DNA of 64,000 nucleotides from Rhizophagus irregularis (taxonomy: Eukaryota). The number at the start of each line of letters is the position of its first letter. Position 1 is the first letter of the stretch. The translations under genes were made by a program, and so were the position numbers. Shown in pieces: positions 17,692 to 54,301 of this stretch. The DNA lies in assembly GCF_026210795.1 (NCBI RefSeq), contig NC_089431.1:2108001-2172000 (forward strand), given 5' to 3'. Under the pieces are notes generated by a model. It was not told the origin of the DNA. It saw nothing but the letters and a program-made list of their open reading frames with translations, and did no database searches.

Positions 17692-17739
17692 TTGTTGTCC
17701 TTTTTCCCCTTCTTTATTACCGTTTATCAGTGTGTAATA

Positions 17740-23391: not shown

Positions 23392-24377
23392 GGGTTGGTC
23401 ACCCTATCTCGGTGGTTAGTCACTGAGACCCTCATTAAGCCTGAGTATGGTGAGATCGCAGGTTCGATTCCTATAACCACGGAAATAAAAAGAATTTTAC
23501 TGCGGACGCTACAACCAATAGCGTGAAGGTACAGGGATTAGTGTAGTTGGACTGCATTATGGTGAATTAGTGTGTACGGTTAGGCTGCACATTTCAACTA
23601 AGGGCGGTCATGGTGTCCTTCTAACGTTCCCTATGAGGCCATTGGCATGTGCGCAGTCCTGTCCTTGAGGTCACTACTATACCTTGGGAGGGACTTCCTG
23701 TCCGGGTGGTCACTCTACGATACCGCTTGGGGCCGTAATAGCTAGATGGTCGTCCTAGATGGTAAAGCTGAGGGTGCAATGTCTTAGTGGTAGTTAGACC
23801 TTCTGTTAGGTCTTAGACCAACCAAGGTGTTCGTGCGAGAACAGGTAACGCATGGCTATGGGGTTCGGATTCCCTACTTCTTGGGTCCTGGTTGGTGATC
23901 CCTGGTGGTTGATACCCACCATAAGGGGTGATCCTGGACAGATGCCTGCTACTTCCTGTCCGAGTGGTCACTACAAAAGTATACCACTTGGGGTAAACAA
24001 CTGTACTATCGGTGCTAGGTAATCGCGGGCTGTAGTGGCCTTTGAGTGAGGCTTAGTACCAAATAAAATGGTGGTATGGAAGGGTACTAGATGGTTGATG
24101 TTACCTGTCGAAAGTCCTCCATGAAAGTAGATGCTCTCTAAAGGTCGTTAAATAAATTGAGTATCAGTATCATGCAATGGGTATAGGATGAGTAGGCGGC
24201 GTGTACTGCTTCGATCAGCCTAAATGGCCCGATGGGGGATGTCTTCTATAGTGGTGCTGTTACCTGAGGAATTAAGTACTCGGTTTAATGGTTGCCCATT
24301 GAAGATGATAGGACACAGACCCTGAACGATTAGTCTCATAAGAGGCAATGGGTGGTCTGGCCGTAAACACTTGCAAA
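23392..24377 (+). mobile_element. 986-bp non-coding SINE-like retroposon, highly structured
   Basis: GC-richer than its surroundings and ORF-free; 20-bp TSD GGAAAAGGATAAAATTACCA at 23372-23391 and 24378-24397; Pol III B-box-like GGTTCGATTCC at 23461-23471; many hairpins; ends TTGCAAA like the adjacent LINE. Confidence 0.75.
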
Positions 24378-27348: not shown

Positions 27349-29083
27349 AAACTTCAAGCCCGGAAAAATGTCCCATTCAACACATTGGTAATAGCTAAAT
27401 TCCTTGACATTTCAATGGCGATAGACCCGATTGATAGATCAACTTGGAGTATATCAGGAGGGAAAGAGCCGATATTAAAGTTCTTTAAACAATATCAGCT
27501 TACGAAGTATATATATAGTATTAACCAAAGCTCACATTACCCAATATTTTATATTGATCAATTATTTATTAGGGGAACATATCTTATGACATGGAAACAA
27601 TATCGTAGTTTAGCACTACTCCCGGTACAAGGAAGGACAGCTAGATGGTACTGTGATGTGGCCCATTTGTGCACATCAAGGACAGATAATTTAACAGTAA
27701 GCAATGATCTGGAGATTACGAAAGTTAACCATTGGGCCTTCTTATTAGATATTATACTGGATGCACGACGCAAACAAGTCATTTTTGTTAGAGAGCCTTT
27801 GGCTAATTCAGATGCATGGTTAATTGGCAAAGTCAACAAAATACATCATCATGAACAGGGGATTTCAGTGAACTATCGTCCAGGATACAATGATAATGGA
27901 ATAATTGGATGGCAGGACACCGGACGAGTTATACTGGCTCATTGCTGTAAGAGAGCAATTTTAGATAGAGTCTCTAATTCACATGGTTGGAGTTTTCCTA
28001 GTGAATGGTTATCTTCAACTCATCATCCTGACATTTTGTTACCCGGAGATAGATCACCAACATCAACGCCAAGTCCCATAATTAGCCTACCACTGGTTCA
28101 GGACATATGGATTCACAGATGGATAGATGATGATGACTTGAAATCAAAACTTACGGATATTAGAAATATATTAGAAGAGAGAACATCAGTAGAATATTAC
28201 ACAGATGGTTCGCTCAGGACAAGTATCCCTACATCAAGGGATAAACAGGATCCCAATTTAGTGTACACAAAAATGGGTGCAGCGTTCTGTGTCAATGATG
28301 AACCTGCCTTATCTGCCCAAGCAAATTTATCATTATGGCCCTCTTCTACACGTGCAGAACTAGTGGCTATTTTTCTGGCATTACTCATAGGTCCTATGAA
28401 TGCAAAAATTAAGATATATACAGACAGTCAAAGTGCCATCTATATGATAAATAATAGACATAATAAATCGGGTAGAAAATTACTGAAACAGTCTAATTCT
28501 TTAATTTTACTTTCTTTTACAGGAAAAAAAGATGGATCTAGTGTTAGTGAAAGTTAAGGGACACAGTGAAGATGTTATGAATGAAATGGTAGATAAATTA
28601 GCTAAAAACACAAGTAATGATAGTGGTTACTTTAACAACAGATTTAACTATAGCAATAGGAAAAACAGATCCCCATTGAATACAACTTAAGGAAATTTAT
28701 CAAAACTCTAATGAATACTAAAGTGGCAGCAGAATGGTCAATGCTAAAATCAAATGGGAACTTAATTCATAGATATAAAGGGTTTAATTGTATTTCAGTT
28801 AAAAAACATTGGCACTTAATATTTATTGTTAAACTATTTGCTAAACTTCTTCCTATAGGTACTATTCTTCTACAGCGAAAACCAAATCTATACAAAGAGT
28901 TTGTCTGTCCAAGGTGCTAACAAAGAAGAAAACAGACATCATTTCATTGAATGTGAGGCCAATAAGGACTTATGGCCTATAATCAAAAGCAGAATGCAAA
29001 ATGATATGATTTCCATAATTCAAAAATAGAGTAATACAACAGAGGATACACCTAAGATTATAAATAAGAAATTAAACCAGATA
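27349..29083 (+). pseudogene. Old LINE ORF2, linker and RNase H part
   Basis: ORF 27385-28557 (YYTDGS, SSTRAEL, IYTDSQ), frameshifted KVKGHS, and ORF 28711-28920 ending CPRC. Confidence 0.85.
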
Positions 29084-29360
29084 CACTGGTCAAAAACTAG
29101 GCAAACGTGGCATAGTAGCCTTTATCTTTATTAAATTTATTCGAACTTTACAATTTACAAAAAAAAATAAAAAGAAAATATAAAAATAAAACTAACTAAA
29201 AACAAAGCTATATAGTTTCCTAAGAAAAAATAAAGTAAAAAAAATTAATCTAAAAAAAAGAAAAATCGCATTACACTAAATTTCCCCAGATCTTCCCCCT
29301 TGATATATTCCAACCAAAGTAGAAGCAACTATGCTAACAAAATAACGAATAGCGCGCCCA

Positions 29361-32300
29361 CTATAGAAATCGACACTCCATCCTGCAAAAGCTGTTATTA
29401 AGTAGCACCGTTAGACGACCCATAAAACCCGAAAAGTGATTAAACCAAGGCAAACCATATTTCATCGAGTTCTTCAACCAATCGGTTCCGGAGTCACGTG
29501 AATCGTGTAGGGTCGGAGGTGGTAAAGATGAGTAAGGTATGTACGTTGACAATGGCAAATTAGAAGGCTTCAGAGTAGTTTTCAACTTATAAGTAATATT
29601 CATCGCGTTTTCCCATCTACTTTTCTCATAAGAACGCGGATTCCAAATTCGTTTTCTGAATTTTTGGACAAAATTATTATGAATAGCAGCGATAACCTTA
29701 ATCGCAGAGATTCTTGGAATAGACAAATCGACTAAGATGTCAATAAAAAGTGTAGGTAAACAACCACGGACAAGGGCGTAAGAGGACCAATTTGTAGAAG
29801 AAAAGGACCAGCATGAAAGAGAAGTGAGTTTAGCAATAAAGGGAGTAGGATCAATATCAGCCAATTTTCCAGCTTCTTGAATTTTAGAAATCAAATGATT
29901 TTGATAAGATTGGAGAATTTGTTGCATAGGTAGACGACGTTTTTTGCACATAAAAAGGTGCATCAGGTCTTCCATGCGATCGATACAAGAACGGCAAGTT
30001 AATTCGTCCATGTATAAGTCTGGTCGAGTCCGCTTAAGCTTTTCCAATGTGGGTAAGTCGTCCAAGAAAAGTTTGAATTTAAAGGTTAAGTGTCTTGAAG
30101 CATGCTCAAGAGTAAAAGATGCATCATGAGAAGGCTTAAAATTCAAGGTAAACCAAGTAAGTTCCCAGTCGACAATATATTCTATATTAGATAATAATAA
30201 AGAAATAAAGTGAAATCGCGTTAAATTTAGCAAATCACGCATTAGCTGCGTTTGATAATACTGTTTAAGAAGGTGTCGTGGATTAGATTCACAAACGGCG
30301 TCATTGTCGTAAGTCAAGACGAAATCATGGGCAGAGGCAAGGTCCATTCCAGAAATCAAAATACTGGATGATGCGGTATGGGCAGTATTGGCCAGGGAGT
30401 CAGCAAAATCGTTCAAATAATTGCCAGAATGAGCTTTAACTTTAACAGGGAGAACTGTCAAATTCTTGGTAAGGATAGTTCGTTCAATAATGGCCCAAAG
30501 CTCAAAATTTGTTGTTTTGTAGTAAAGACGGCTATTTGAGTAGACATAGGAAGAGCAACTTCGAAGGCCATCAATGGCAGTTTGCGAGTCAGTATAAATA
30601 GTAACTTCTGAGTCGCGAGGAGAAATGGTTAAAACTGCGTAAATAGCGGCAGCTTCAGCACGAGAAGAAGAAGGATTATCTCGAATGATGCCATGTGCAT
30701 AAGTAGCAATGGAATTAGGAAAACCAGCATCAGGTACGATTTGCATCCAAGACCAGCCCATAGAAACATTAGGAGTGCCTAGATTAATAAGAGACCCATC
30801 AGTGAAAAAGATATAACGTGAGTCTGAAGACACAACCAACGGCGAATTTGCAAAAACAGCAGCAGCTGAGGATTCAATAGTGATAAGAGGAGCGGAAACT
30901 TCAACAATATCATCAGGAGGAGAGTCAAAATCAAAATCCAATCGACTGTAATAAAGACGGACACCATCTTCGATATCAGCCCAGGTAAAAGGAGAGGATA
31001 CTGCAGAAGTATTACGTCTAATGCGCTCATTGATAGTGGGCAGAATAAGCGAATGTTGTAGAGAAACCGTAGGCGTACAAAGGGTTAAATCAGCATTCCG
31101 TTTTTTGGAAGGAGGCAAAGAAGTATGAGCAGCACAACCAGGGCAAGGAGAGAGTCTAATGAGATCACCAGGCGAAGATTCACAATCAGAAGAGACCCAG
31201 TGAACAATAGAACAAGTACCATGACTTGCTTGAACTAAAAGTTGTTTGCCAAAGATGGGAGGACCGTAGTCGTCTAACGTGACAATCCAATTTTTCGTAG
31301 TGGTAGGAGAGGACAGGCAAGGAGTCAATTCATAAAATGAAGAGTCAATCGTAGGCGTAGTAATGAACTGGCTCAGCAAACGATTGTTAGTGTCAGGAAT
31401 GGTAGTAGCTTGCTGGATATCTTTATACCAATAAGGGATACAGCCAGGGCCACGTCGTCCAACCAAATTGTCATAGTAGGCTTTCCAAGAAATTAAATGG
31501 GTCCCTTGGGGAGTAACAAGCTGAGATAGATAAAACAAATGCCATTTTCGCAAAATAGGGAAATAGGCTTTAAACGCTTTAGGTGTCATGCATTCAAATA
31601 ACGGAACGCGTCCATCCATCAAAGTCAGGTTCGGAAGCTTCGAAAGTTGAGTATGAAGCAAACGAAAAGGAGTAGAGGATAAGAGAGCAATAGTGCATGC
31701 GATATAATCTTTCTTAAAAGAAAAAAGAGAAGACCATATAGACCAATCCTTAATTAAAAGGGGAGAAATAGGAATTAAAAAATTATATTGAATCAAACTC
31801 AATCTATAAATAAAAAGAGATTGAATAAAAGAAAAGGAAGAATTAGCCATTAAAAATAAATTAGTAATATGACATTGTCGTTGATGAGCAAATAAATTTA
31901 TCAAGCCCAAGGCTTGAGATAAAAATAAAATGGGATTTGGTAAAGAGCGAGAAAAATTTGCTTTGTGCTTTACAACAGATCGTATACTTCTCGTTATTAG
32001 GTGGCAGTCAGATTCAGACAAGTGAGTAACTTGCATCCGGTATTCAAGTTTCAGTATAAGGACAGCATTATGTAAATAAACAACTTGTTTGGATGAGAGC
32101 TTTGCAGGGCGGATGGTTGCAGCGAAGGAGCAGCATTCACGTTTGAGTTGTTTCTTGACAAAATCCCGGGAGCTTTTAATGTTAAACCAAACACCTAAAA
32201 AACGAAAAGAAGTTGTCATAGAAATTGGGGTAATGGTAATGGAAGGAACACTATTTAATGAGGATAAATCTAGATTAAAAGTAATAGGAGATAAAGTGGA

Positions 32301-34988
32301 ATTCGAAGTCAAAGGCAACGAATTAGTAATTAACACATATTTGTTATGATTGGCAGAAGTGTTATTAATTTGATAGAATTCTTCTGTAATGGATAACATA
32401 AATTCCATGCCAGTCTTCGACGAGGAAATAAGAGTAGAGTCATCCATAAATACTAAATTATTAATCTTCAAATCAGAAGAAAGATTGGGAGAATCAATTA
32501 AGGATGGTGTAGAAAGAACATAAGGGTCCATCATTTCATGCTTCAAGACAGTAAGTAAGGGATCAATATAAATAACCCATAAAAGAGGAGAAATAACTTC
32601 GCCTTGGTCAATACCAATGCGAACCCTATAAGCAGGCGTGGATCCATGAGCAGTGAAAACGCTATTAATGCGTTTTGTGAAAAGGGAAAGAATAAACTTA
32701 ATAGCAGAAGCTGGAAGACGTATTCGTTCTAAAGCGAAACGTAACATTGTCAAATCAACCGAGTCAAAAGCTTTAGAAATGTCTTGAGAGAGAATCCAAA
32801 GTGGGTTTTTGTTGACATCAGCATCATGGATAATAGATTCTAGAGTAATAATAGGGTCGCGGCAAGAACCACCAGGAAGACCAGCGAAGTTACCACCTTT
32901 AAGAACATCATGTGTAGCCATAACAGTAGAAAGGCGATTATAAAAGAGTTTGACAAGAGATTTTCTAATCACTTCAAGTAAAGTAATAGGACGAGTATTT
33001 TTCAATTGACATTTCCATTCGTGAGGTTTGGGAATGGGAAAAACCATTGCCTGTCGCCATAAGTCAGGAATATCAGCTTTGGAAAGGCAAGCTTGAATTA
33101 AAATAAGGAGTAGAGCCGAGGAACAAGATCCAAGGTGTTTGAGCATTTCATAAGTGATCATGGAAGGACCTGAGGCTTTACCGTTAGGAGTAGAAGAAAC
33201 GGTGGTTAACCATTCGTCAAGGGTAGGGGGATTCATCAAAGAATCATAGATGGAGGAGGGCACATCATCCATAGGTTGGTAAACAGAAGACCATCTATCA
33301 GGTAATGTATCTACAGATACAGGAGGAGTGGATTTTATAGGTACAAAGTTTTGGAAATGGTTAACAACAGCATCGTCTATATCCTTGGGAGCAGTTAATA
33401 ACTGAGGGTGAGTGGGATGATCAACAAAGACACGATCCAAAGTGATACGGCGGCGGGTGCGAGAAAGCGCTGAATCAATGAAAGAGGAAAGGTCAGTTTC
33501 AAAATTATTGTTCCTATCGTCCAAATGAGCACGGATGGAGGAATCTTGGAACTCTTTTTCTTGAAGTAAATGAAATCCCCGTAAGGATTTTGAAATATTG
33601 GATAAATCATCAAGAAGTGACTTGAAATCATCTTGTCGACATGATGAGAGAGAAGAGGGCAAAGTAGGAACGAAAGTAAATACTTTCTTATATAATTGCA
33701 AAATGTTTTGAAGTCTGATTAAATGAATAGACCACTTATGTTCATGAGCGGCAGAATAGGTTAAAGGATATTTGCGCAATAAACGTATTGAATGCATAAG
33801 GCGATTTAAAAACCGATAATGTTGGGTTAAAATTTCCAGATCTTTAGGAACCTTAGGAGTATAATTATTGCCAACAGTGGAAGAAGGTAGTGTAACGTTG
33901 GCAGCTTTAAGAATTCGTGATTGGAGATATTCGCACATTTGATTGATATGCCAGGAGGAAAAGGTTGAAGGTGAGACGTCACATAAAGCATCAGCTTTAT
34001 CAGCAAATTCCGTCCATTGAATTTCAGTTACAGAATCAAATTTGAAGACACGACGGGTTCGGCGCTTAAGTTGTCGAGCGCGAGCCAATTTGGTAGAGGC
34101 AAAAAGTAAGGACATATCATAGTATGTTATGACGGGGTTATGATCAGATGTGCAAACATCTTGAGCATTAAAAATGCAAGCAGTAAGAGCAAATCCTTTG
34201 AGAAGAGGGCAGGACCATACATAATCAACTCGAGTAATGTGGTCATTGCGATGAAAGGTACCTAAGGAGTCGGAAAGATTAATAGGAGTATAGTCTTCAT
34301 ATCCGTGAGAGAGGAGATGAAAAAATAATCGGTGAATATGTTTTGAAGCAACTTGAGGTTGATTGAAGTAAATAGGGTAATATTTGTCTAAATGCATATT
34401 AAAATCGCCACAAACAGCATGGTAAAAGCCAGCATGTTTAGCAAGGGTAAGTTGTTGAATGAGCAAATCAATAGTATCAGTGCGCAGAACACTTTCAGCA
34501 GGGGGAGGGATATAAATAACAAATATACGCAATTTAATATTGCCTTTGAAATATAAATCAACAGAAAGTAACCGTGAAGAATGGGATTTAAAATCTTGAA
34601 CATGTGAAGCGAGGGAATTTTCTATAAAAAGAGAAACACCACCAGAAGAGAGAATTTGTTTAGAAGTATCCAAATTAGAAGAGAACACAGTATAATTAGA
34701 AATACGTTTGGATAAAAACTTCATTTGTTTAGGGTGAAGATGGGTATCCACGATACCACCAAAGGAAATATGTTTTAAGGAAAAGAAAGTAGAAATTTCT
34801 TCTAATTTAGTCTGACCATACATTTTAAGGCCATTAACATTAAAGGAAGAAATATTAAATGAATTGGGGATAGGGGAAGTGTTACTGGAAGAGGAAAATA
34901 ACGATTCATGCGAAAAAATTTCAGTAACATAGTCAGGGTTGGGAGGGTTTCGTACAAAGGTATCATAATTAAAATTATTGTCCGACAT
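29361..34988 (-). CDS. Intact LINE ORF2, 1875 aa: APE endonuclease, reverse transcriptase, RNase H, C-terminal Zn-binding motif
   Basis: SFNVNG, CGDFN, RVDYVW, SDH; QDISKAFD, GIDQGEVISP, FMDD, FLGVWF; FTDGS, SSRAE, YTDS, KVKAHSGNYLNDFAD; CRSC..EDLMHLFMC. Confidence 0.96.
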   Translation of the reverse strand: MSDNNFNYDTFVRNPPNPDYVTEIFSHESLFSSSSNTSPIPNSFNISSFNVNGLKMYGQTKLEEISTFFSLKHISFGGIVDTHLHPKQMKFLSKRISNYTVFSSNLDTSKQILSSGGVSLFIENSLASHVQDFKSHSSRLLSVDLYFKGNIKLRIFVIYIPPPAESVLRTDTIDLLIQQLTLAKHAGFYHAVCGDFNMHLDKYYPIYFNQPQVASKHIHRLFFHLLSHGYEDYTPINLSDSLGTFHRNDHITRVDYVWSCPLLKGFALTACIFNAQDVCTSDHNPVITYYDMSLLFASTKLARARQLKRRTRRVFKFDSVTEIQWTEFADKADALCDVSPSTFSSWHINQMCEYLQSRILKAANVTLPSSTVGNNYTPKVPKDLEILTQHYRFLNRLMHSIRLLRKYPLTYSAAHEHKWSIHLIRLQNILQLYKKVFTFVPTLPSSLSSCRQDDFKSLLDDLSNISKSLRGFHLLQEKEFQDSSIRAHLDDRNNNFETDLSSFIDSALSRTRRRITLDRVFVDHPTHPQLLTAPKDIDDAVVNHFQNFVPIKSTPPVSVDTLPDRWSSVYQPMDDVPSSIYDSLMNPPTLDEWLTTVSSTPNGKASGPSMITYEMLKHLGSCSSALLLILIQACLSKADIPDLWRQAMVFPIPKPHEWKCQLKNTRPITLLEVIRKSLVKLFYNRLSTVMATHDVLKGGNFAGLPGGSCRDPIITLESIIHDADVNKNPLWILSQDISKAFDSVDLTMLRFALERIRLPASAIKFILSLFTKRINSVFTAHGSTPAYRVRIGIDQGEVISPLLWVIYIDPLLTVLKHEMMDPYVLSTPSLIDSPNLSSDLKINNLVFMDDSTLISSSKTGMEFMLSITEEFYQINNTSANHNKYVLITNSLPLTSNSTLSPITFNLDLSSLNSVPSITITPISMTTSFRFLGVWFNIKSSRDFVKKQLKRECCSFAATIRPAKLSSKQVVYLHNAVLILKLEYRMQVTHLSESDCHLITRSIRSVVKHKANFSRSLPNPILFLSQALGLINLFAHQRQCHITNLFLMANSSFSFIQSLFIYRLSLIQYNFLIPISPLLIKDWSIWSSLFSFKKDYIACTIALLSSTPFRLLHTQLSKLPNLTLMDGRVPLFECMTPKAFKAYFPILRKWHLFYLSQLVTPQGTHLISWKAYYDNLVGRRGPGCIPYWYKDIQQATTIPDTNNRLLSQFITTPTIDSSFYELTPCLSSPTTTKNWIVTLDDYGPPIFGKQLLVQASHGTCSIVHWVSSDCESSPGDLIRLSPCPGCAAHTSLPPSKKRNADLTLCTPTVSLQHSLILPTINERIRRNTSAVSSPFTWADIEDGVRLYYSRLDFDFDSPPDDIVEVSAPLITIESSAAAVFANSPLVVSSDSRYIFFTDGSLINLGTPNVSMGWSWMQIVPDAGFPNSIATYAHGIIRDNPSSSRAEAAAIYAVLTISPRDSEVTIYTDSQTAIDGLRSCSSYVYSNSRLYYKTTNFELWAIIERTILTKNLTVLPVKVKAHSGNYLNDFADSLANTAHTASSSILISGMDLASAHDFVLTYDNDAVCESNPRHLLKQYYQTQLMRDLLNLTRFHFISLLLSNIEYIVDWELTWFTLNFKPSHDASFTLEHASRHLTFKFKLFLDDLPTLEKLKRTRPDLYMDELTCRSCIDRMEDLMHLFMCKKRRLPMQQILQSYQNHLISKIQEAGKLADIDPTPFIAKLTSLSCWSFSSTNWSSYALVRGCLPTLFIDILVDLSIPRISAIKVIAAIHNNFVQKFRKRIWNPRSYEKSRWENAMNITYKLKTTLKPSNLPLSTYIPYSSLPPPTLHDSRDSGTDWLKNSMKYGLPWFNHFSGFMGRLTVLLNNSFCRMECRFL

Positions 34989-35038
34989 TAAAACACAATG
35001 ATATAAACAGTCGGAGAGTTAAAATTTGAAGAAAGAAA

Positions 35039-37152
35039 TTAATTGGAAGAAGCTGAATCAGCTTGTTCCAGGGGAGCACCACCAAGGGAGCCAATGAATT
35101 GCTTGATATGACCAGTAAGTTGGTCCAATTTACTTTCAATAGCGACACGACTATTTTTGAGATCATTAATTTCTTCTTGTGTGGAGAAGATGGGAGTAAA
35201 AGGAGGAGCATTTGGAGAAAGGTGAGAAGAAGGAGGTGATGTGTCAGGAACAATAGTGAATGTAGGCGAAGGTCGCGTTAAAATACTTTTGGGAGGCAGC
35301 GAAGATTTAGCGGAAGACAGAATATTAAGAGGAACGTGAGTTACAGGGGCATCTTCTTGCATGAGGTCCGGTTCAGGTTCATTGGGTATAGGGAGTGGAT
35401 CAAGGCCAAGGTGTGATTCAATACGAGTCATCCGTTGGTCAGCAAGTTCAAGAGCGGAGATGCGTTTGTGAAAGTTAGCAACTTCACATTGTAATTCTCG
35501 TAAAAGGTTTAGAATGTTGTTAGCATCATCGCAGAGTTAGGAGTTTGTCGGGGTAAGGGACGTGCTGTAGAACGAGAGGAGGAAGAAAAGGAGACAGATC
35601 GTTCTTTACTATTATGGCGGGCACGTTGAGAAGTATTGGGAGGGGGTTTGTTATGATTACTATTATCATTATTAGTGCGGTCATGGGAAGCGTTATTGGC
35701 TCGTCCAGAATTGGAAGCAGATCGATCTTTAGATTTGGAGCGAGATCGAGAGCGAGAACGTGCATTGGCAATATTAGAATTGGAGCGAGGTTGATTAACA
35801 TTGAATCGTTCTTTAAGTTTTGCAACAGGGTCGCGAGTGCGGCTTCTACCTCTGGTTTGTTTGAGTGGGCAAAAATTAGGAGCACAACCTAGTTTGCCAC
35901 ATCTGTGACAAAGTTTATTAGTATTATCGGAAGAGGACCAGAAAAGCACTTTGCCTTGGAAGCTAACAGTCTGTTCCATAGCAGCATCCATGGTTTCTTG
36001 GGAGTTGAAGGTGACATAGGCCCATCTTTTGGGTTTGTAGGAATTTAAAGAAAGAGGAACATTGACAGCTTTTGCACCAAGATCGCGTGTAAGAGGAGCC
36101 AAGTTGATATCCTTAACATTGGGAGGAAGTTGAGTGAGGGTGGCAACGTATTGACGGCGCGCAGCTTTTTGATCCACAGTATAGAAACATGGAGTAATTC
36201 GGAGACAAGTGGAGAAACAGTAAACAGCCCATTGGTCGGTAAAACGAGCAATTGAATCGGCGTGATCATACACAATACGGGCTTGCTGGACTTTAGCATT
36301 AGGCCTGGAGAAGAGGCGACAAGAGGTAATATTACCAAATTTTTTGAAATAGGCCATGAGGTTGTCCTTTTTGATAAAGAAAGGGATATCGGTAACTTGG
36401 ATAGCCCGGAGATCTTCATTGGATCGGAGTTGGCGAGGGTCATGGGCATGAAAAATCAAGTCAGGGAACTCAGGATGAGAGGAACCAACGCACAGAGCGC
36501 GTGCTTCAGCGGTATGGAAGTGGATAACGAGGCGTTTAGCCTCACCAGAACCTGTCATACGAGCTTTTCCAGTGAATGACTCGTACGTTTCCAAGAAAAG
36601 GTTATTCACAGCCTCAATAAGGGCTTTATTGGTAGGGAATTTCTTGAGCGATTCAGGGGCAGCATTCGGCGCAGCCGCAGCCTGAAAATCATCTCTGGTT
36701 ATGGCAAAGGTCACCACTGGATCTGGGGTTTGATCGCCATCAGGAGCACCATTAGTATCCAAATTGGGCGACGTGTTAGGGGGTAGTTGCAAGTCTTTGT
36801 TTGAAGGTGCATGCATGGACGCGTCCACATTTCCAGAAGACGCGACGTGACTGGACGCAGTTGGCGCAGCAGATTTTTTCGGGGAGGAGGCCAAAGTATT
36901 TTCGCCAGAGATATTTTGTTGAGGAGAAAAGGAAGGTCCATCTACTCCAACGTCAGCCGTCTGGTCATCGGCAACGTAGTCTTCTTCCATAGAATTTTCG
37001 GTAATCGTACGATTACGTTTCTGCTGGATAGTGTTTTCACCATCGGAGCTTGAATTATCGGAGTTGTTATTATTTTTTCGTTCTTGATGGGAAGCTTTCC
37101 TACTGTTAGGGTTATGACTTCCACGGCCTCTCTTGGCATAGTTACCAGATAT
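35039..37152 (-). pseudogene. LINE ORF1 of copy A, disrupted
   Basis: The start codon reads ATA (37152-37150) where copy B has ATG. A 10-bp deletion near 35530 (copy B has AGGAGATAAT) shifts the frame. Confidence 0.88.
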
Positions 37153-37572
37153 AGTAGAGGGCTTTGAGTTGGGAATATATAAATATAAAATTTTTATTAG
37201 TAGCTTGTATTATTTTTTAAAAATAATAAAAAATTATTTTCGTCGGAATTTTCGTTTTTGAAAAATTCAGGAGAGAGTTACTGGTCAAAAACCACTACTA
37301 CTGGTCAAAAACTAGGCAAACGTGGCATAGTAGCCTTTATCTTTATTAAATTTATTCGAACTTTACAATTTACAAAAAAAATAAAAAGAAAATATAAAAA
37401 TAAAACTAACTAAAAACAAAGCTATATAGTCTCCTAAGAAAAAATAAAGTAAAAAATTAATCTAAAAAAAAGAAAAAACGCATTACACTAAATTTCCCCA
37501 GATCTTCCCACTTGATATATTCCAACCAAAGTAGAAGCAACTATGCTAACAAAATAACGAATAGCGCGCCCA

Positions 37573-40500
37573 CTATAGAAATCGACACTCCATCCTGCAA
37601 AAGCTGTTATTAAGTAGCACCGTTAGACGACCCATAAAACCCGAAAAGTGATTAAACCAAGGCAAACCATATTTCATTGAGTTCTTCAACCAATCGGTTC
37701 CGGAGTCACGTGAATCGTGTAGGGTCGGAGGTGGTAGAGATGAGTAAGGTATGTACGTTGACAATGGCAAATTAGAAGGCTTCGGAGTAGTTTTCAACTT
37801 ATAAGTAATATTCATCGCGTTTTCCCATCTACTTTTCTCATAAGAACGCGGATTCCAAATTCGTTTTCTGAATTTTTGGACAAAATTATTATGAATAGCA
37901 GCGATAACCTTAATCGCAGAGATTCTTGGAATAGACAAATCGACTAAGATGTCAATAAAAAGTGTAGGTAAACAACCACGGACAAGGGCGTAAGAGGACC
38001 AATTGGTAGAAGAAAAGGACCAGCATGAAAGAGAAGTGAGTTTAGCAATAAAGGGAGTAGGATCAATATCAGCCAATTTTCCAGCTTCTTGAATTTTAGA
38101 AATCAAATGATTTTGATAAGATTGGAGAATTTGTTGCATAGGTAGACGACGTTTTTTGCACATAAAAAGGTGCATTAGGTCTTCCATGCGATCGATACAA
38201 GAACGGCAAGTTAATTCGTCCATGTATAAGTCTGGTCGAGTCCGCTTAAGCTTTTCCAATGTGGGAAAGTCGTCCAAGAAAAGTTTGAATTTAAAGGTTA
38301 AGTGTCTTGAAGCATGCTCAAGAGTAAAAGATGCATCATGAGAAGGCTTGAAATTCAAGGTAAACCAAGTAAGTTCCCAGTCGACAATGTAATCTATATT
38401 AGATAATAATAAAGAAATAAAGTGAAATCGCGTTAAATTTAACAAATCACGCATTAACTGCGTTTGATAATACTGTTTAAGAAGGTGTCGTGGATTAGAT
38501 TCACAAACGGTGTCATTGTCGTAAGTCAATACGAAATCATGGGCAGAGGCAAGGTCCATTCCAGAAATCAAAATACTGGATGATGCGGTATGGGCAGTAT
38601 TGGCCAGGGAGTCAGCAAAATCGTTCAAATAATTGCCAGAATGAGCTTTAACTTTAACAGGAAGAACTGTCAAATTCTTGGTAAGGATAGTTCGTTCAAT
38701 AATGGCCCAAAGCTCAAAATTTGTTGTTTTGTAGTAAAGACGGCTGTTTGAGTAGACATAGGAAGAGCAACTTCGAAGGCCATCAATGGCAGTTTGCGAG
38801 TCAGTATAAATAGTAACTTCTGAGTCGCGAGGAGAAATGGTTAAAACTGCGTAAATAGCGGCAGCTTCAGCACGAGAAGAAGAAGGATTATCTCGAATGA
38901 TGCCATGTGCATAAGTAGCAATGGAATTAGGAAAACCAGCATCAGGTACGATTTGCATCCAAGACCAGCCCATAGAAACATTAGGAGTGCCTAGATTAAT
39001 AAGAGACCCATCAGTGAAAAAGATATAACGTGAGTCTGAAGACACAACCAACGGCGAATTTGCGAAAACAGCAGCAGCTGAGGATTCAATAGTGATGAGA
39101 GGAGCGGAAACTTCAACAATATCATCAGGAGGAGAGTCAAAATCAAAATCCAATCGACTGTAATAAAGACGGACACCATCTTCGATATCAGCCCAGGTAA
39201 AAGGAGAGGATACTGCAGAAGTATTACGTCTAATGCGCTCATTGATGGTGGGCAGAATAAGCGAATGTTGTAGAGAAACCGTAGGCGTACAAAGGGTTAA
39301 ATCAGCATTCCGTTTTTTGGAAGGAGGCAAAGGAATATGAGCAGCACAACCAGGGCAAGGAGAGAGTCTAATAAGATCACCAGGCGAAGATTCACAATCA
39401 GGAGAGACCCAGTGAACAATAGAACAAGTACCACGACTTGCTTGAACTAAAAGTTGTTTGCCAAAGATGGGAGAACCGTAGTCGTCTAACGTGACAATCC
39501 AATTTTTCGTAGTGGTAGGAGAGGACAGGCAAGGAGTCAATTCATAAAATGAAGAGTCAATCGTAGGCGTAGTAATGAACTGGCTCAGCAAACGATTGTT
39601 GGTGTCAGGAATGGTAGTAGCTTGCTGGATATCTTTATACCAATAAGGGATACAGCCAGGGCCACGTCGTCCAACCAAATTGTCATAGTAGGCTTTCCAA
39701 GAAATTAAATGAGTCCCTTGGAGAGTAACAAGCTGAGATAGATAAAACAAATGCCGTTTTCGCAAAATAGGGAAATAGGCTTTAAACGCTTTAGGTGTCA
39801 TGCATTCAAATAAGGGAACGCGTCCATCCATCAAAGTCAGGTTCGGAAGCTTCGAAAGTTGAGTATGAAGCAAACGAAAAGGAGTAGAGGATAAGAGAGC
39901 AATAGTGCATGCGATATAATCTTTCTTAAAAGAAAAAAGAGAAGACCATATAGACCAATCCTTAATTAAAAGGGGAGAAATAGGAATTAAAAAATTAAAT
40001 TGAATCAAACTCAATCTATAAATAAAAAGAGATTGAATAAAAGAAAAGGAAGAATTAGCCATTAAAAATAAATTAGTAATATGACATTGTCGTTGATGAG
40101 CAAATAAATTTATCAAGCCCAAGGCTTGAGATAAAAATAAAATGGGATTTGGTAAAGAGCGAGAAAAATTTGCTTTGTGCTTTACAACAGATCGTATACT
40201 TCTCGTTATTAGGTGGCAGTCAGATTCAGACAAGTGAGTAACTTGCATCCGGTATTCAAGTTTCGGTATAAGGACAGCATTATGTAAATAAACAACTTGT
40301 TTGGATGAGAGCTTTGCAGGGCGGATGGTTGCAGCGAAGGAGCAGCATTCACGTTTGAGTTGTTTCTTGACAAAATTCCGGGAGCTTTTAATGTTAAACC
40401 AAACACCTAAAAAACGAAAAGAAGTTGTCATAGAAATTGGGGTAATGGTAATGGAAGGAACACTATTTAATGAGGATAAATCTAAATTAAAAGTAATAGG

Positions 40501-43200
40501 AGATAAAGTGGAATTCGAAGTCAAAGGCAACGAATTAGTAATTAACACATATTTGTTATGATTGGCAGAAGTGTTATTAATTTGATAGAATTCTTCTGTA
40601 ATGGATAACATAAATTCCATGCCAGTCTTCGACGAGGAAATAAGAGTAGAGTCATCCATAAATACTAAATTATTAATCTTCAAATCGGAAGAAGGATTGG
40701 GAGAATCAATTAAGGATGGTGTAGAAAGAACATAAGGGTCCATCATTTCATGCTTCAAGACAGTAAGTAAGGGATCAATATAAATAACCCATAAGAGAGG
40801 AGAAATAACTTCGCCTTGGTCAATACCAATGCGAACCCTATAAGCAGGCGTGGATCCATGAGCAGTGAAAACGCTATTAATGCGTTTTGTGAAAAGGGAA
40901 AGAATAAACTTAATAGCAGAAGCTGGAAGACGTATTCGTTCTAAAGCGAAACGTAACATTGTCAAATCAACCGAGTCAAAAGCTTTAGAAATGTCTTGAG
41001 AGAGAATCCAAAGTGGGTTTTTGTTGACATCAGCATCATGGATAATAGATTCTAGAGTAATAATAGGGTCACGGCAAGAACCACCAGGAAGACCAGCGAA
41101 GTTACCACCTTTAAGAACATCATGTGTAGCCATAATAGTAGAAAGGCGATTATAAAAGAGTTTGACAAGAGATTTTCTAATCACTTCAAGTAAAGTAATA
41201 GGACGAGTATTTTTCAATTGACATTTCCATTCGTGAGGTTTGGGAATGGGAAAAACCATTGCCTGTCGCCATAAGTCAGGAATATCAGCTTTGGAAAGGC
41301 AAGCTTGAATTAAAATAAGGAGTAGAGCCGAGGAACAAGATCCAAGGTGTTTGAGCATTTCATAAGTGATCATGGAAGGACCTGAGGCTTTACCGTTAGG
41401 AGTAGAAGAAACGGTAGTTAACCATTCGTCAAGGGTAGGGGGATTCATCAAAGAATCATAGATGGAGGAGGGCACATCATCCATAGGTTGGTAAACAGAA
41501 GACCATCTATCAGGTAATGTATCTACAGATACAGGAGGAGTGGATTTTATAGGTACAAAGTTTTGGAAATGGTTAACAACAGCATCGTCTATATCCTTGG
41601 GAGCAGTTAATAACTGAGGGTGAGTGGGATGATCAACAAAGACACGATCCAAAGTGATACGGCGGCGGGTGCGAGAAAGCGCTGAATCAATGAAAGAGGA
41701 AAGGTCAGTTTCAAAATTATTGTTCCTATCGTCCAAATGAGCACGAATGGAGGAATCTTGGAATTCTTTTTCTTGAAGTAGATGGAATCCCCGTAAGGAT
41801 TTTGAAATATCGGATAAATCATCAAGAAGTGACTTGAAATCATCTTGTCGACATGATGAGAGAGAAGAGGGCAAAGTAGGAACGAAAGTAAATACTTTCT
41901 TATATAATTGCAAAATGTTTTGAAGTCTGATTAAATGAATAGACCACTTATGTTCATGAGCGGCAGAATAAGTTAAAGGATATTTGCGCAATAAACGTAT
42001 TGAATGCATAAGGCGATTTAAAAACCGATAATGTTGGGTTAAAATTTCCAGATCTTTAGGAACCTTAGGAGTATAATTATTGCCAACAGTGGAAGAAGGT
42101 AGTGTAGCGTTGGCAGCTTTAAGAATTCGTGATTGGAGATATTCGCACATTTGATTGATATGCCAGGAGGAAAAGGTTGAAGGTGAGACGTCACATAAAG
42201 CATCAGCTTTATCAGCAAATTCCGTCCATTGAATTTCAGTTACAGAATCAAATTTGAAGACGCGACGGGTTCGGCGCTTAAGTTGTCGAGCGCGAGCCAA
42301 TTTGGTAGAGGCAAAAAGTAAAGACATATCATAGTATGTTATGACGGGGTTATGATCAGATGTGCAAACATCTTGAGCATTAAAAATGCAAGCAGTAAGA
42401 GCAAATCCTTTGAGAAGAGGGCAGGACCATACATAATCAACTCGAGTAATGTGGTCATTGTGATGAAAGGTACCTAAGGAGTCGGAAAGATTAATAGGAG
42501 TATAGTCTTCATATCCGTGAGAGAGGAGATGAAAAAATAATCGGTGAATTTGTTTTGAAGCAACTTGAGGTTGATTGAAGTAAATAGGGTAATATTTGTC
42601 TAAATGCATATTAAAATCGCCACAAACAGCATGGTAAAAGCCAGCATGTTTAGTAAGGGTAAGTTGTTGAATGAGCAAATCAATAGTATCAGTGCGCAGA
42701 ACACTTTCAGCAGGGGGAGGGATATAAATAACAAATATACGCAATTTAATATTGCCTTTGAAATATAAATCAACAGAAAGTAACCGTGAAGAATAGGATT
42801 TAAAATCTTGAACATGTGAAGCAAGGGAATTTTCTATAAAAAGAGAAACACCACCAGAAGAGAGAATTTGTTTAGAAGTATCCAAATTAGAAGAGAACAC
42901 AGTATAATTAGAAATACGTTTGGATAAAAACTTCATTTGTTTAGGGTGAAGATGGGTATCCACGATACCACCAAAGGAAATATGTTTTAAGGAAAAGAAA
43001 GTAGAAATTTCTTCTAATTTAGTCTGACCATACATTTTAAGGCCATTAACATTAAAGGAAGAAATATTAAATGAATTGGGGATAGGGGAAGTGTTACTGG
43101 AAGAGGAAAATAACGATTCATGCGAAAAAATTTCAGTAACATTGTCAGGGTTGGGAGGGTTTCGTACAAAGGTATCATAATTAAAATTATTGTCCGACAT
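37573..43200 (-). CDS. Intact LINE ORF2, 1875 aa (APE-RT-RNase H-Zn)
   Basis: Same motifs as 29361-34988, differing at a small number of residues. Confidence 0.96.
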   Translation of the reverse strand: MSDNNFNYDTFVRNPPNPDNVTEIFSHESLFSSSSNTSPIPNSFNISSFNVNGLKMYGQTKLEEISTFFSLKHISFGGIVDTHLHPKQMKFLSKRISNYTVFSSNLDTSKQILSSGGVSLFIENSLASHVQDFKSYSSRLLSVDLYFKGNIKLRIFVIYIPPPAESVLRTDTIDLLIQQLTLTKHAGFYHAVCGDFNMHLDKYYPIYFNQPQVASKQIHRLFFHLLSHGYEDYTPINLSDSLGTFHHNDHITRVDYVWSCPLLKGFALTACIFNAQDVCTSDHNPVITYYDMSLLFASTKLARARQLKRRTRRVFKFDSVTEIQWTEFADKADALCDVSPSTFSSWHINQMCEYLQSRILKAANATLPSSTVGNNYTPKVPKDLEILTQHYRFLNRLMHSIRLLRKYPLTYSAAHEHKWSIHLIRLQNILQLYKKVFTFVPTLPSSLSSCRQDDFKSLLDDLSDISKSLRGFHLLQEKEFQDSSIRAHLDDRNNNFETDLSSFIDSALSRTRRRITLDRVFVDHPTHPQLLTAPKDIDDAVVNHFQNFVPIKSTPPVSVDTLPDRWSSVYQPMDDVPSSIYDSLMNPPTLDEWLTTVSSTPNGKASGPSMITYEMLKHLGSCSSALLLILIQACLSKADIPDLWRQAMVFPIPKPHEWKCQLKNTRPITLLEVIRKSLVKLFYNRLSTIMATHDVLKGGNFAGLPGGSCRDPIITLESIIHDADVNKNPLWILSQDISKAFDSVDLTMLRFALERIRLPASAIKFILSLFTKRINSVFTAHGSTPAYRVRIGIDQGEVISPLLWVIYIDPLLTVLKHEMMDPYVLSTPSLIDSPNPSSDLKINNLVFMDDSTLISSSKTGMEFMLSITEEFYQINNTSANHNKYVLITNSLPLTSNSTLSPITFNLDLSSLNSVPSITITPISMTTSFRFLGVWFNIKSSRNFVKKQLKRECCSFAATIRPAKLSSKQVVYLHNAVLIPKLEYRMQVTHLSESDCHLITRSIRSVVKHKANFSRSLPNPILFLSQALGLINLFAHQRQCHITNLFLMANSSFSFIQSLFIYRLSLIQFNFLIPISPLLIKDWSIWSSLFSFKKDYIACTIALLSSTPFRLLHTQLSKLPNLTLMDGRVPLFECMTPKAFKAYFPILRKRHLFYLSQLVTLQGTHLISWKAYYDNLVGRRGPGCIPYWYKDIQQATTIPDTNNRLLSQFITTPTIDSSFYELTPCLSSPTTTKNWIVTLDDYGSPIFGKQLLVQASRGTCSIVHWVSPDCESSPGDLIRLSPCPGCAAHIPLPPSKKRNADLTLCTPTVSLQHSLILPTINERIRRNTSAVSSPFTWADIEDGVRLYYSRLDFDFDSPPDDIVEVSAPLITIESSAAAVFANSPLVVSSDSRYIFFTDGSLINLGTPNVSMGWSWMQIVPDAGFPNSIATYAHGIIRDNPSSSRAEAAAIYAVLTISPRDSEVTIYTDSQTAIDGLRSCSSYVYSNSRLYYKTTNFELWAIIERTILTKNLTVLPVKVKAHSGNYLNDFADSLANTAHTASSSILISGMDLASAHDFVLTYDNDTVCESNPRHLLKQYYQTQLMRDLLNLTRFHFISLLLSNIDYIVDWELTWFTLNFKPSHDASFTLEHASRHLTFKFKLFLDDFPTLEKLKRTRPDLYMDELTCRSCIDRMEDLMHLFMCKKRRLPMQQILQSYQNHLISKIQEAGKLADIDPTPFIAKLTSLSCWSFSSTNWSSYALVRGCLPTLFIDILVDLSIPRISAIKVIAAIHNNFVQKFRKRIWNPRSYEKSRWENAMNITYKLKTTPKPSNLPLSTYIPYSSLPPPTLHDSRDSGTDWLKNSMKYGLPWFNHFSGFMGRLTVLLNNSFCRMECRFL

Positions 43201-43250
43201 TAAAACACAATGATATAAACAGTCGGGGAGTTAAAATTTGAAGAAAGAAA

Positions 43251-45373
43251 TTAATTGGAAGAAGCCGAATCAGCTTGTTCCAGGGGAGCGCCACCAAGGG
43301 AGCCAATGAATTGCTTGATATGACCAGTAAGTTGGTCCAATTTACTTTCAATAGCGACACGACTATTTTTGAGATCATTAATTTCTTCTTGTGTGGAGGA
43401 GATGGGAGTAAAAGGAGGAGCATTTGGAGAAAGGTGAGAAGAAGGAGGTGATGTGTCAGGAACAACAGTGAATGTAGGCGAAGGTCGCATTAAAATACTT
43501 TTGGGAGGCAGCGAAGATTTAGCGGAAGACAGAATATTAAGAGGAACATGAGTTACAGGGGCATCTTCTTGCATGAGGTCCGGTTCAGGTTCATCGGGTA
43601 TAGGGAGTGGATCAAGGCCAAGGTGTGATTCAATACGAGTCATCCGTTGGTCAGCAAGTTCAAGAGCGGAGATGCGTTTGTGAAAGTTAGCAACTTCACA
43701 TTGTAATTCTCGTAAAAGGTTTAGAATGTTGTTAGCATCATCAGGAGATAATGCAGAGTTAGGAGTTTGTCGGGGTAAGGGACGTGCTGTAGAACGAGAG
43801 GAGGAGGAAAGGAGACAGATCGTTCTTTACTATTATGGCGGGCACGTTGAGAAGTATTGGGAGGGGGTTTGTTATGATTACTATTAACATCATTAGTGCG
43901 GTCATGGGAAGCGTTATTGGCTCGTCCAGAATTGGAAGCAGATCGATCTTTAGATTTGGAGCGAGATCGAGAGCGAGAGCGTGCATTGGCAATATTAGAA
44001 TTGGAGCGAGGTTGATTAACATTGAATCGTTCTTTGAGTTTTGCAACAGGGTCGCGAGTGCGGCTTCTACCTCTGGTTTGTTTGAGTGGGCAAAAATTAG
44101 GAGCACAACCTAGTTTGCCACATCTGTGACAAAGTTTATTAGTATTATCGGGGGAGGACCAGAAAAGCACTTTGCCTTGGAAGCTAACAGTCTGTTCCAT
44201 AGCAGCATCCATGGTTTCTTGGGAGTTGAAGGTGACATAGGCCCATCTTTTGGGTTTGTAGGAATTTAAAGAAAGAGGAACATTGACAGCTTTTGCACCA
44301 AGATCGCGTGTAAGAGGAGCCAAGTTGATATCCTTAACATTGGGAGGAAGTTGAGTGAGGGTGGCAACGTATTGACGGCGCGCAGCCTTTTGATCCACAG
44401 TATAGAAACATGGAGTAATTCGGAGACAGGTGGAGAAACAGTAAACAGCCCATTGGTCGGTAAAACGAGCAATTGAATCGGCGTGATCATACACAATACG
44501 GGCTTGCTGGACTTTAGCATTAGGCCTGGAGAAGAGGCGACAAGAGGTAATATTACCAAATTTTTTGAAATAGGCCATGAGGTTGTCCTTTTTGATAAAG
44601 AAAGGGATATCGGTAACTTGGATAGCCCGGAGATCTTCATTGGATCGGAGTTGGCGAGGGTCATGGGCATGAAAAATCAAGTCAGGGAACTCAGGATGAG
44701 AGGAACCAACGCACAGTTCGCGTGCTTCAGCGGTATGGAAGTGGATAACGAGGCGTTTAGCCTCACCAGAACCTGTCATACGAGCTTTTCCAGTGAATGA
44801 CTCGTACGTTTCTAAGAAAAGGTTATTCACAGCCTCAATAAGGGCTTTATTGGTAGGGAATTTCTTGAGTGATTCAGGGGCAGCATTCGGCGCAGCCGCA
44901 GCCTGAAAATCATCTCTGGTTATGGCAAAGGTCACCACTGGATCTGGGGTTTGATCGCCATCAGGAGCACCACTAGTATCCAAATTGGGCGACGCGTTAG
45001 GGGGTTGTTGCAAGTCTTTGTTTGAAGGTGCATGCATGGACGCGTCCACATTTCCAGAAGACGCGACGTGACTGGGCGCAGTTGGCGCAGCAGATTTTTT
45101 CAGGGAGGAGGCCAAAGTATTTTCGCCAGAGATATTTTGTTGAGGAGAAGAGGAAGGTCCATCTACTCCAACGTCAGCCGTCTGGTCATCGGCAACGTAG
45201 TCTTCTTCCATAGAATTTTCGGTAATCGTACGATTACGTTTCTGCTGGATAGTGTTTTCACCATCGGAGCTTGAATTATCGGAGTTGTTATTATTTTTTT
45301 GTTCTTGACGGGAAGCTTTCCTACTGTTAGGGTTATGACTTCCACGGCCTCTCTTGGCATAGTTACCAGACAT
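43251..45373 (-). CDS. LINE ORF1 (~707 aa consensus; RRM-like domains, CX2CX4CX4C knuckle, RS-rich tract, coiled coil) with a single 1-bp frameshift near 43810
   Basis: ORFs 43721-45373 and 43251-43643 fuse into one frame (…PNSALSPDDANNILNLLRELQ…MTRIESH) if the base present in copy A is restored. The indel could be a sequencing error. Confidence 0.85.
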
Positions 45374-46530
45374 AGTAGAGGGCTTTGAGTTGGGAATATA
45401 TAAAATATAAAATATTTATTAGTAGCTAGTATTATTTTTTTAAAAATAATAAAAATTATTTTCGTCGAAAATTTTCGTTATTGAAAAATTCAGGAGAGAG
45501 TTACTGGTCAAAAACTAATATATTAGGTAGCAGATATGTATCAGATATGTACCTGATATGTGTAGTATTAATGCTGAAAATCGGGTACCTGATATGTGTA
45601 AGATATGTGTAAATATATATATCGTCTATATATCATTTACATATCATATACATATCAGTACCTGATATGTATATGATATATATATTTACACATATCTTAC
45701 ACATATCAGGTACCCGATTTTCAGCATTAATACTACACATATCAGGTACATATCTGATTAGTTTTTGACCAGTGATACTAGGAACACAACATGATGATAA
45801 AAAATTTTTTGATTTTTGCTCACTGGCCTTGGAAGCTAAGATTGACACTAATTTTTCCAAAATATCAAAACAAATATTTGGATTCTCAGAGTCAAAAAAC
45901 ATTTTATTTTTGGCATCACTTTTGGATTCCTTCATCATGCACTTTAAGGAACTAATTTGGTTGCCTAGATGTAATACTACTAATGCATGGGAAAAGGCTA
46001 AAAATATTGGAAAAAAGACAAATTAAATGAATCTGAAAATATGGATCGTTATTTTAAATCCCCTCATCAACAGATCAAGCAATTAAAACAGAATAAACAA
46101 CAATCAAAGAAGAATAATATAACAAATTCACAGGAAGATCAAATGGTAGAGTTTAGTGATACATCATTGGAATTGGATTCAGTACAGCTTAAAAACTTAA
46201 AAAATGAAAATCTCATATTATCAAAATGCTATATATAATTGATTTAGCAACAGTATAATTAAACTTAAATTGGAGTTATACATAAATTTACCAAATTTGA
46301 AAGGAAAAAGGGAGGGAAAAAAAAAATAATAATAATAATAATATTTATAATAATAACAACAATTTCTATAATATAATCAATAGACATAATATTAATTATT
46401 TTTATAATCAATAGATACAACACTAATTATTTTTTATTCTATATTTATTCTTATCCATATTTTGATGATTGCATCCTACTGGGTGGATATAGCTTATGAT
46501 AATTTGTTTGTATGGTATATAAACTACATA

Positions 46531-47139
46531 TCAATAAAGCATATATAAATCATTAAAAAAAAAAAAAAAAAAATTACCTAATGTTAAATTTTTTTCATAT
46601 TTGGGTTCTTCTTTGATTTTATTTAAAATTATAGCAGTTTCATGATTTAAGAAAGTTGTTGATATGGTTGTTCTTTTAGGAAGACCATAAACAAAACAGA
46701 GACTTTGAACAAAATTAATAAAATAAGGATGACCAATGGTTGAAAATGGTATTCCACAGCAAATAAAAAACCGTATAAGTGCTTGATCGATTTTATCTTT
46801 TCTATCCGCAGTAAGCTCAGCTGATGAATCAGAATCTGTTTTTTGTTTTCTATTCATAGTAAATGTAGTTCCAACAGCCAGCATTTCCATATATTCTGTT
46901 TTAATATACAGTGGAACATCTTTACAATACAATGCTAAATGTGACTTCAAAATTTCTGGTTTTTCTTTAAACCAGTTTTGATTACAGTAATGACATCTAG
47001 CTTTGTAATGCTCACTACTCAATGGTTCTTTAAAATAATGATCCCAGTCATGTAATTCTTTACGAACCCTTCTAACTTCTCTAATATTTTGATTATTAAA
47101 TAAATCTGTAACTCTTTCCCGAAACGAAAATTTCTGCAT
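46531..47139 (-). pseudogene. hAT transposase N-terminal exon (BED zinc finger)
   Basis: WDHYF..ARCHYC..ILKSHLALYC and LIRFFICCGIPFSTIGHPYF...LPKRTTIS; runs into an intron at NLTLG; downstream exons are degraded or truncated. Confidence 0.8.
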
Positions 47140-47544
47140 AATAATTTTTTTTTAAAAAAATAATCCCCTTTATTAAATTTTATTACACAAATATAAAAAT
47201 GTCTGCTGAATTTTTTTCTTTTGAACAATTATTGTTTAATAATTATTATTTCAATGATATCAATAAATAAAACAATAAAATATAAAAGTATTACATGTAG
47301 TTAAAAAAATCAAAATATTAAGAAAAATGCATTATTTTTTATTAAAAAAATCTGTTTTTGATGATATGCATTTTTATGTTAAAAATACAAACGTAAAAAA
47401 ATGGATCGGCCAGATAATTTAATGGATTATTTATCTATTAATCCATTAGATCAACCGGCCAAAAATGATTTGCGAAAATTGATTAAATATTATTTTATCT
47501 GGTATTCTCATGACAAATACATAAAGCTGTTATCATTAAAAAAA

Positions 47545-54299: not shown

Positions 54300-54301
54300 T
54301 A

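Follow-up and report, generated by a model that had tools for sequence, protein, structure and literature searches.

Two near-identical 8.2-kb long interspersed nuclear elements (LINEs), referred to here as copies A and B, lie head-to-tail inside the end of a miniature inverted-repeat transposable element (MITE) in a 64,000-nt stretch of the Rhizophagus irregularis genome (NCBI RefSeq assembly GCF_026210795.1, contig NC_089431.1, positions 2,108,001 to 2,172,000 of the forward strand; hereafter the window, numbered from its first base), and they form a real, well-defined feature. The arrangement probably arose when members of a LINE family predicted to cut a 15-bp sequence specifically inserted twice by target priming, in separate events. 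This reading is drawn from the exact copies of the 13-mer ACTGGTCAAAAAC, which opens the 15-bp word, and from the identical junction bases at both elements. The 13-mer is found in the window at five positions versus 0.17 expected, a number reached in 0 of 100 shuffles; four copies are on the plus strand (29085, 37280, 37300 and 45503) and one is on the minus strand (45761).

Both LINEs are located on the minus strand and occupy bases 2-16 of the left terminal inverted repeat (TIR) of a 273-bp palindromic MITE of the CACTG...CAGTG type. From left to right, the plus strand contains the outer 16 bp of the left TIR (CACTGGTCAAAAACTA, 29084-29099), in which 29085-29099 is the target copy downstream of A; LINE A (29100-37279, 8180 nt); a variant 15-mer upstream of A (ACTGGTCAAAAACCA, 37280-37294, which is TGGTTTTTGACCAGT in the LINE orientation); a 5-nt filler, CTACT (37295-37299); the target copy downstream of B (ACTGGTCAAAAACTA, 37300-37314); LINE B (37315-45502, 8188 nt); and the remainder of the MITE (45503-45774, 272 bp, or 273 bp with the C at 29084), which begins with the target copy upstream of B (45503-45517). 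Read in the LINE orientation, the order is MITE interior (...CCTAATATAT), TAGTTTTTGACCAGT, B, TAGTTTTTGACCAGT, AGTAG, TGGTTTTTGACCAGT, A, TAGTTTTTGACCAGT, G and the host flank. A and B have the same ends, 5' AACTCTCTCC and 3' GCCACGTTTGCC, and their junctions are base-identical, with CCAGT followed by AACTCTC on the 5' side and GTTTGCC followed by TAG on the 3' side. The LINE 3' ends carry no poly(A) tail, and self-comparison revealed the 15-mer as the only terminal repeat, with no long terminal repeats. The two copies are 98.64% identical over 8233 columns in blastn (29074-37292 versus 37289-45515), and MAFFT alignment of the LINE bodies gave 96 substitutions (74 transitions) and 6 indels. 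A previous reading of the window from its letters alone (the sequence-only reading) had described two full-length LINEs with intact 1875-aa second open reading frames (ORF2), differing by scattered substitutions and indels, and this description was borne out except for the strand, both LINEs being on the minus strand, and for the detail of the middle junction. The word that it placed at four boundaries is present at all four as the plus-strand 13-mer, but the copy at 37280 deviates beyond base 13, reading ACTGGTCAAAAACCA and then CTACT.

The ORF2 frames are open at 29361-34988 in A and 37573-43200 in B (both minus strand) and differ by 23 residues. Searches against Pfam revealed the reverse transcriptase (RT) domain RVT_1 (5.3e-21, aa 652-934) and RNase_H (7.6e-11), while the N-terminal Exo_endo_phos_2 match in the ORF2 protein (P0001) scored 19.7 bits, under the Pfam cut-off of 27.4; relatives carry precomputed PF14529/PF03372 matches. 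ORF1 of B (43721-45373, minus strand, 550 aa) encodes an RNA recognition motif (RRM_1, 2.8e-09) and a Cys-rich knuckle, and ORF1 of A (35509-36990, minus strand) is an open frame of 493 aa. The ORF1 of each copy is damaged in a different way: the canonical start of A at 37150-37152 reads ATA, not ATG, and its frame opens 57 codons later than in B, while B, compared with A, has lost 1 bp and gained 10 bp near the C-terminus. Judging by its domains, the element appears to be a LINE with RT, RNase H and a weakly scoring N-terminal region of the apurinic/apyrimidinic endonuclease (APE) type. The RNase_H domain sets it apart from the Tx1 clade, a judgement made without a phylogeny, and in a PDB sequence search the L1 and R2 RT chains matched ORF2 about equally (~1e-15), giving no discrimination between clades.

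Among the 120 proteins listed, nearly all significant relatives belong to R. irregularis (up to 98% identity) or R. clarus (55-71%), and one 90%-identity cluster has 113 members. The NCBI gene model P0136 equals ORF2 of A over aa 1-1845, predicted introns aside, and locus A is thus present in an independent annotation. Near the end of ORF2, every NCBI gene model compared has a 73-nt GT...AG interval (29383-29455 and 37595-37667, minus strand) removed as a predicted intron; this predicted splicing gives another C-terminus, in which ...MKYG is joined to WSVDFYSGRAIRYF..., while the unspliced frame is open to 1875 aa. In the R. clarus gene model P0058, ORF2 is fused to the next ORF1, which corresponds to a head-to-tail pair in a related family.

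A further question is whether the 16 bp to the left of A belong to the MITE or to the LINE. Without the LINEs, the MITE is 273 bp long and almost perfectly palindromic, its 101-nt arms being 95% complementary; it contains 12 copies of GATATGT/ACATATC and no ORF. Its termini, CACTGG...CCAGTG, are inverted and perfect over 16 of 16 positions, 29084-29099 being the reverse complement of 45759-45774, so that the perfection of the outer TIR noted in the sequence-only reading holds. Termini of this kind, together with subterminal short repeats and the lack of coding capacity, place the MITE with CACTA/CMC-type elements. The right TIR was also correctly read as an identical, empty target: the 15 bp at 45759-45773 (TAGTTTTTGACCAGT on the plus strand) are unoccupied, and 18 of 18 terminal bases match the left end. 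ATA flanks the MITE on both sides (29081-29083 and 45775-45777) and is likely its 3-bp target site duplication (TSD), the flanks reading ...CCAGATA before CACTGG on the left and CCAGTG followed by ATACTAGG on the right. Contigs from two of the four public runs (two contigs in X15 and one of 287 nt in X5; contig depths were not taken as copy numbers) join 29079 to 45774, skipping 16,694 nt, with ~ 5% other letters, and they derive from a paralogue of the host sequence that lacks the composite. Such an empty-site paralogue indicates that the MITE-plus-LINE block inserted with MITE ends and that the left 16 bp belong to the MITE, not to the LINE. The perfect 16-bp inverted termini, the flanking ATA and the empty-site paralogue together imply that the MITE arrived before the LINEs. 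The empty-site contigs are compatible with a TSD of 3-5 bp and, as the terminal bases are ambiguous, a TSD of 4-5 bp is also possible; the element may alternatively be parsed as ACTGG...CCAGT with the 5-bp TSD GATAC, against which stands a variant MITE end in the contigs that also reads ...GACCAGTG.

The host of the MITE is the 3' part of an older degenerate LINE (27277-29083, resuming at 45775 to ~ 46240, plus strand) with a frameshifted RNase H region (RNase_H, 8.7e-06) and C-terminal Cys/His motifs like those of P0001. The nesting is therefore three deep, a LINE in a MITE in a LINE. No autonomous partner with a CMC transposase and the same TIR was found in the 64-kb window; CMC/EnSpm and Plavaka families are reported in R. 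irregularis in the available part of PMC11075540. Logan contigs (joint 45597->45549) also contain a variant MITE end, ...CTTGATTTTGACCAGTG, showing that MITE subfamilies vary inside the 15-bp target, and such variation could restrict which MITEs get colonised.

Are the target and the stacking peculiar to this locus? We retrieved 182 proteins of the family and checked them for read-through of the LINE 3' end, and four gene models were positive, three (P0005, P0171 and P0172) at one locus and P0138 at another. All four read ...KDKGYYA(T/M)FA-W-F-L-T-S and then continue directly into the ORF2 of a second copy, from ~ aa 658 or ~ aa 1600. The same frame in the window gives ATFA-*-FLTS, from GCC TAG TTT TTG ACC AGT; W-FLTS implies TGG TTT TTG ACC AGT, that is, TGG and then what translates as TTTTTGACCAGT. 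At both loci, the second copy is 5'-truncated, and exactly one target word lies between the copies, with no filler in frame. Thus, as far as protein translations can tell, the two gene-model loci appear to show the same target and the same stacking, and independent insertions at the same word with the same cut positions were found, in a sample that is small and biased. Among the contig joints listed, one links a copy 5'-truncated at 29309 to the target and a LINE 3' end (X15, X6), and another links a copy truncated at 39866 to the target and the MITE interior (X6). A region search yielded no more read-through models: only the P0005 cluster emerged among 8 near-length candidates and none among shorter proteins. 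The 21-mer of the LINE 3' end had 0 matches in metagenome contigs and 0 in viral contigs; a single match in prokaryote genomes was a bare 21-mer in unrelated sequence of a metagenome-assembled genome and was attributed to chance. Consecutive accession numbers on one 2.0-Mb contig were rejected as evidence of an array, since adjacent members of differing length look like isoforms of one locus.

Another important question is whether A and B are independent insertions or the products of DNA duplication. One LINE could have inserted into the TIR and later been doubled as DNA, by unequal exchange between TSDs or by a replication error, and no target specificity would then be required. This possibility is suggested by the same flanks and the ~ 98.8% identity of the copies, and R1 arrays are said, in the accessible portion of PMC5932611, to grow by unequal exchange after a first double insertion. 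An exchange between TSDs, however, predicts a single 15-mer between the copies, while 35 nt including a variant 15-mer were found, that is, the 15-mer plus 20 extra nt. The divergence of the copies is also of the wrong kind. The 54 ORF2 differences between A and B comprise 31 synonymous and 23 non-synonymous changes, while a neutral simulation preserving the mutational spectrum gave 35.1 +/- 3.4 non-synonymous changes, with 23 or fewer in 0 of 5000 runs and in 0 of 987 stop-free runs; the substitution rate is 4.2% in the 5' untranslated region and 0.96% in ORF2. A dN/dS well below 1 is not predicted by neutral decay after a duplication, and this signature of selection indicates that much of the A-B divergence arose in active lineages before insertion. 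In a comparison with five unlinked genomic copies over 1743 amino acid columns, the distance between A and B fell within the range of those separating either one from the other five (d(A,B)=21, d(A,others)=18-28, d(B,others)=15-25), and no derived residue is exclusive to A and B. Finally, the same stacking with differently truncated partners occurs at the two other loci. We therefore regard duplication as improbable. These comparisons show that neither copy is the sister of the other, and they favour two insertions of different origin; the locus has the features of a double-insertion dimer, with a target copy between members of separate origins. The proposal of the sequence-only reading, namely that a sequence-specific LINE re-creates its target through the TSD and can thus insert serially, gains support from the non-sister copies, the purifying signature and the two further loci.

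The middle junction requires separate consideration. Within its 35 nt, 5 filler bases separate a complete target copy from a 15-mer in which TGG replaces TAG; alternatively, 37293-37314 can be parsed as C(ACT)3GGTCAAAAACTA, the whole TIR with ACT triplicated. The TGG 15-mer differs from the local TAG target and thus cannot be a local copy unless it mutated, and the TGG variant agrees with the W-FLTS implied at the two other loci. Hence, the word before A is likely no TSD but a 5' leader, transcribed from the target preceding the source element of A, and the suggestion that the 13-mer upstream of A is a TSD copy is probably incorrect, as this 13-mer is part of the variant word with 5 filler bases adjoining. 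No ribozyme was found at the LINE 5' end: no Rfam family reached its gathering score around the 5' end and the MITE, and the only sub-threshold matches were of the microRNA-hairpin type, to the palindrome.

The same junction may also be read as a dimer formed in a single integration. End-to-end template jumping of LINE reverse transcriptases is known from the R2 literature, and the enzyme, on reaching the 5' end of one RNA and after adding a few bases, could have switched templates to the 3' end of another RNA with read-through target. The 5 filler bases, the target-like sequence on either side of the middle junction and the different sources of A and B would all fit. At the two other loci, however, there is exactly one target word and no in-frame filler, which fits ordinary re-insertion, and we consider a template jump an unlikely origin of the pair.

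The 15-mer could, in principle, belong to the LINE transcript, as a 3' transduction or terminal repeat that follows every copy, with the match to the MITE being secondary. The word does follow the LINE 3' end at every junction seen, in the window and at the two gene-model loci. However, it is also present ahead of B, where the MITE interior adjoins it without a break; together with the terminal C/G, it forms a perfect 16-bp inverted repeat with the far MITE end, flanked by ATA; the whole composite is absent from the paralogous host copy; and no other TSD surrounds the LINE plus 15-mer. In addition, the first copy of a second LINE family in the window (family 1, with A and B representing family 2) appears to open with the same AACTCTCTCC at 15553, which supports placing the 5' end of family 2 after the 15-mer. 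A transcript-borne 15-mer is thus very improbable. An assembly artefact, in which two alleles or paralogues of one insertion were placed end to end, is the least credible explanation, as the window is without N, the filler and variant 15-mer would not be created by a mis-join of identical loci, and stacks at other loci occur in an independent annotation, even though an 8.2-kb repeat at ~ 98.8% identity is hard to assemble and the junction is known from the assembly alone.

Several points weigh against two separate, sequence-specific insertions, a reading that we hold as probable. Ectopic conversion could obscure which LINE copies are sisters, our data do not separate a template jump from two events, and the middle junction is 35 nt long, not one clean TSD. 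The tandem junction comes solely from the assembly, and the endonuclease domain of P0001 lies under the Pfam cut-off, its specificity being predicted only. DNA is seen at one locus, while the two extra loci are known as amino acids, with Trp alone fixing its codon. Moreover, a TAG target terminates gene models, so that only non-TAG variants are visible and the sample is biased and tiny. Both contig joints are weak: each side measures 20-27 nt, and the label is 'between: not known'. Besides those listed, there are 151 more joints and 825 loose ends. Target preference is accordingly measured by the window and two gene-model loci, not by a genome-wide share of copies.

Under the reading of two target-primed insertions, the following course of events can be proposed. 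The endonuclease would nick the plus strand of the window between TIR bases 16 and 17 (CTA^AT, at 45517/45518), leaving a 3' end from which the RNA, ending in ...GUUUGCC, would be reverse transcribed. Second-strand cleavage, predicted after CCAGT, would fall 15 bp from the nick and one base within the MITE terminus, and it would produce a 15-bp TSD. A TSD of this length provides a complete target on each side, so that the next element can enter either copy and the stack can grow. Transcripts likely begin in the upstream target copy and would thereby acquire a 5' leader, which could let the cDNA anneal to the target, so that the 5' junction would be precise, as is seen at B. Annealing may have failed at A, leaving the leader of the source element (the TGG variant) and 5 filler bases. 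The arrangement suggests that A is the later arrival. The word predicted to lie 3' of family copies is T(A/G)GTTTTTGACCAGT.

A more far-reaching version can be formulated, in which the LINE family lives essentially only in the TIRs of one MITE family and stacks there, the composite with its perfect ends is carried by cut-and-paste transposition, and the MITE end supplies the transcription start and the 5' leader required for precise integration of the LINE. We regard this version as rather doubtful. The stack begins one base inside the terminus, and the composite thus retains perfect ends for transposase recognition; its outermost 16 bp are undamaged, but on the left a distance of 16.4 kb now separates the subterminal repeats from the end. 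Movement of the composite by a CACTA transposase, as envisaged in the sequence-only reading, is neither supported nor contradicted. If the version were true, the retrotransposon would be doubly dependent on a DNA transposon.

The window contains several other repeats. Family 1 is represented by two copies (~ 15553-24675, plus strand, and 54300-64000, minus strand) that are 82-88% identical and contain ORFs with RRM, APE, RT and RNase H domains. Both 3' ends finish with ...GGAGTTGACTGTA, and the bases that follow differ between the copies. The second copy is broken by ~ 3.2 kb (~ 57758-60969) with matches to DUF659 (5.2e-09) and the hAT dimerisation domain (6.6e-06), which indicate a nested hAT-like element. 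Four tandem-repeat arrays (525-1445, 4521-5744, 11134-12201 and 51857-52992) show self-matches of 75-94% at offsets of roughly 80, 50, 185 and 120 bp, respectively. Just to the right of the composite, a 206-aa open frame (46534-47151, minus strand) has a Cys/His-rich stretch and no Pfam match.

In the literature that we searched, we found no description of such a stacked site-specific LINE, and the available parts of PMC11075540 and PMC13465315 contain no mention of one. If the proposed reading is true, a fungal RNase H-bearing lineage has converged on a MITE TIR, and this would be an independent case of APE endonucleases acquiring long recognition sequences. It would also explain part of the nested compartments rich in transposable elements in arbuscular mycorrhizal genomes and, with its intact ORFs and numerous identical targets, would allow double insertion and the birth of arrays to be followed among strains in a natural system.

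To our knowledge, strict target specificity among APE-type LINEs has been recognised in a limited set of lineages, and the targeting of another transposon is known chiefly from Tx1/Tx2 of Xenopus; the Tx1-clade elements that we know of are without RNase H. By domain order, the element described here resembles the RNase H-bearing fungal LINEs (Tad1/I-like), with a weak APE match, RT, RNase H and an ORF1 with RRM and Cys knuckle, and we know of no Tad1-like elements that are site-specific. In the accessible portions of PMC6719617, PMC4494074 and PMC1950540, Tx1L is described as having a sequence-specific endonuclease, with specificity demonstrated in vitro, and one site inside the DNA transposon Tx1D of Xenopus laevis, which is described as a piggyBac-type element. 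As in the Tx1L/Tx1D pair, a LINE with a weak APE-type match occupies one site within a non-autonomous DNA transposon and forms a composite with it. Unlike in Tx1L, the host is a fungus, insertion is into the very TIR of a CACTG MITE, ORF2 contains RNase H, the TSD is 15 bp long, the copies form head-to-tail stacks, and the specificity of the R. irregularis element is predicted from its sequence.

For R1 in Drosophila rDNA, the available text of PMC5932611 describes double insertion leading to dimers and arrays separated by the TSD, including 5'-truncated tandems. The R. irregularis locus shares with R1 the re-creation of the target by the TSD, the target copy between copies and the 5'-truncated tandems, and it differs in that a mobile MITE end serves as the target in place of 28S rDNA, the stack has two members, and one junction contains filler and a variant word. 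In co-transcribed target-specific LINEs (R2 and others), target-bearing RNA strengthens precise integration, according to the part of PMC4494074 available. The variant 15-mer at the 5' end of A fits such a target-derived leader; unlike in R2, no ribozyme was found at the 5' end, and the endonuclease is of the APE type (a weak match) and not of the restriction-enzyme-like type. Thus, by analogy, the R. irregularis case may be regarded as a fungal counterpart of a habit known from the frog Tx1 and the insect R1.

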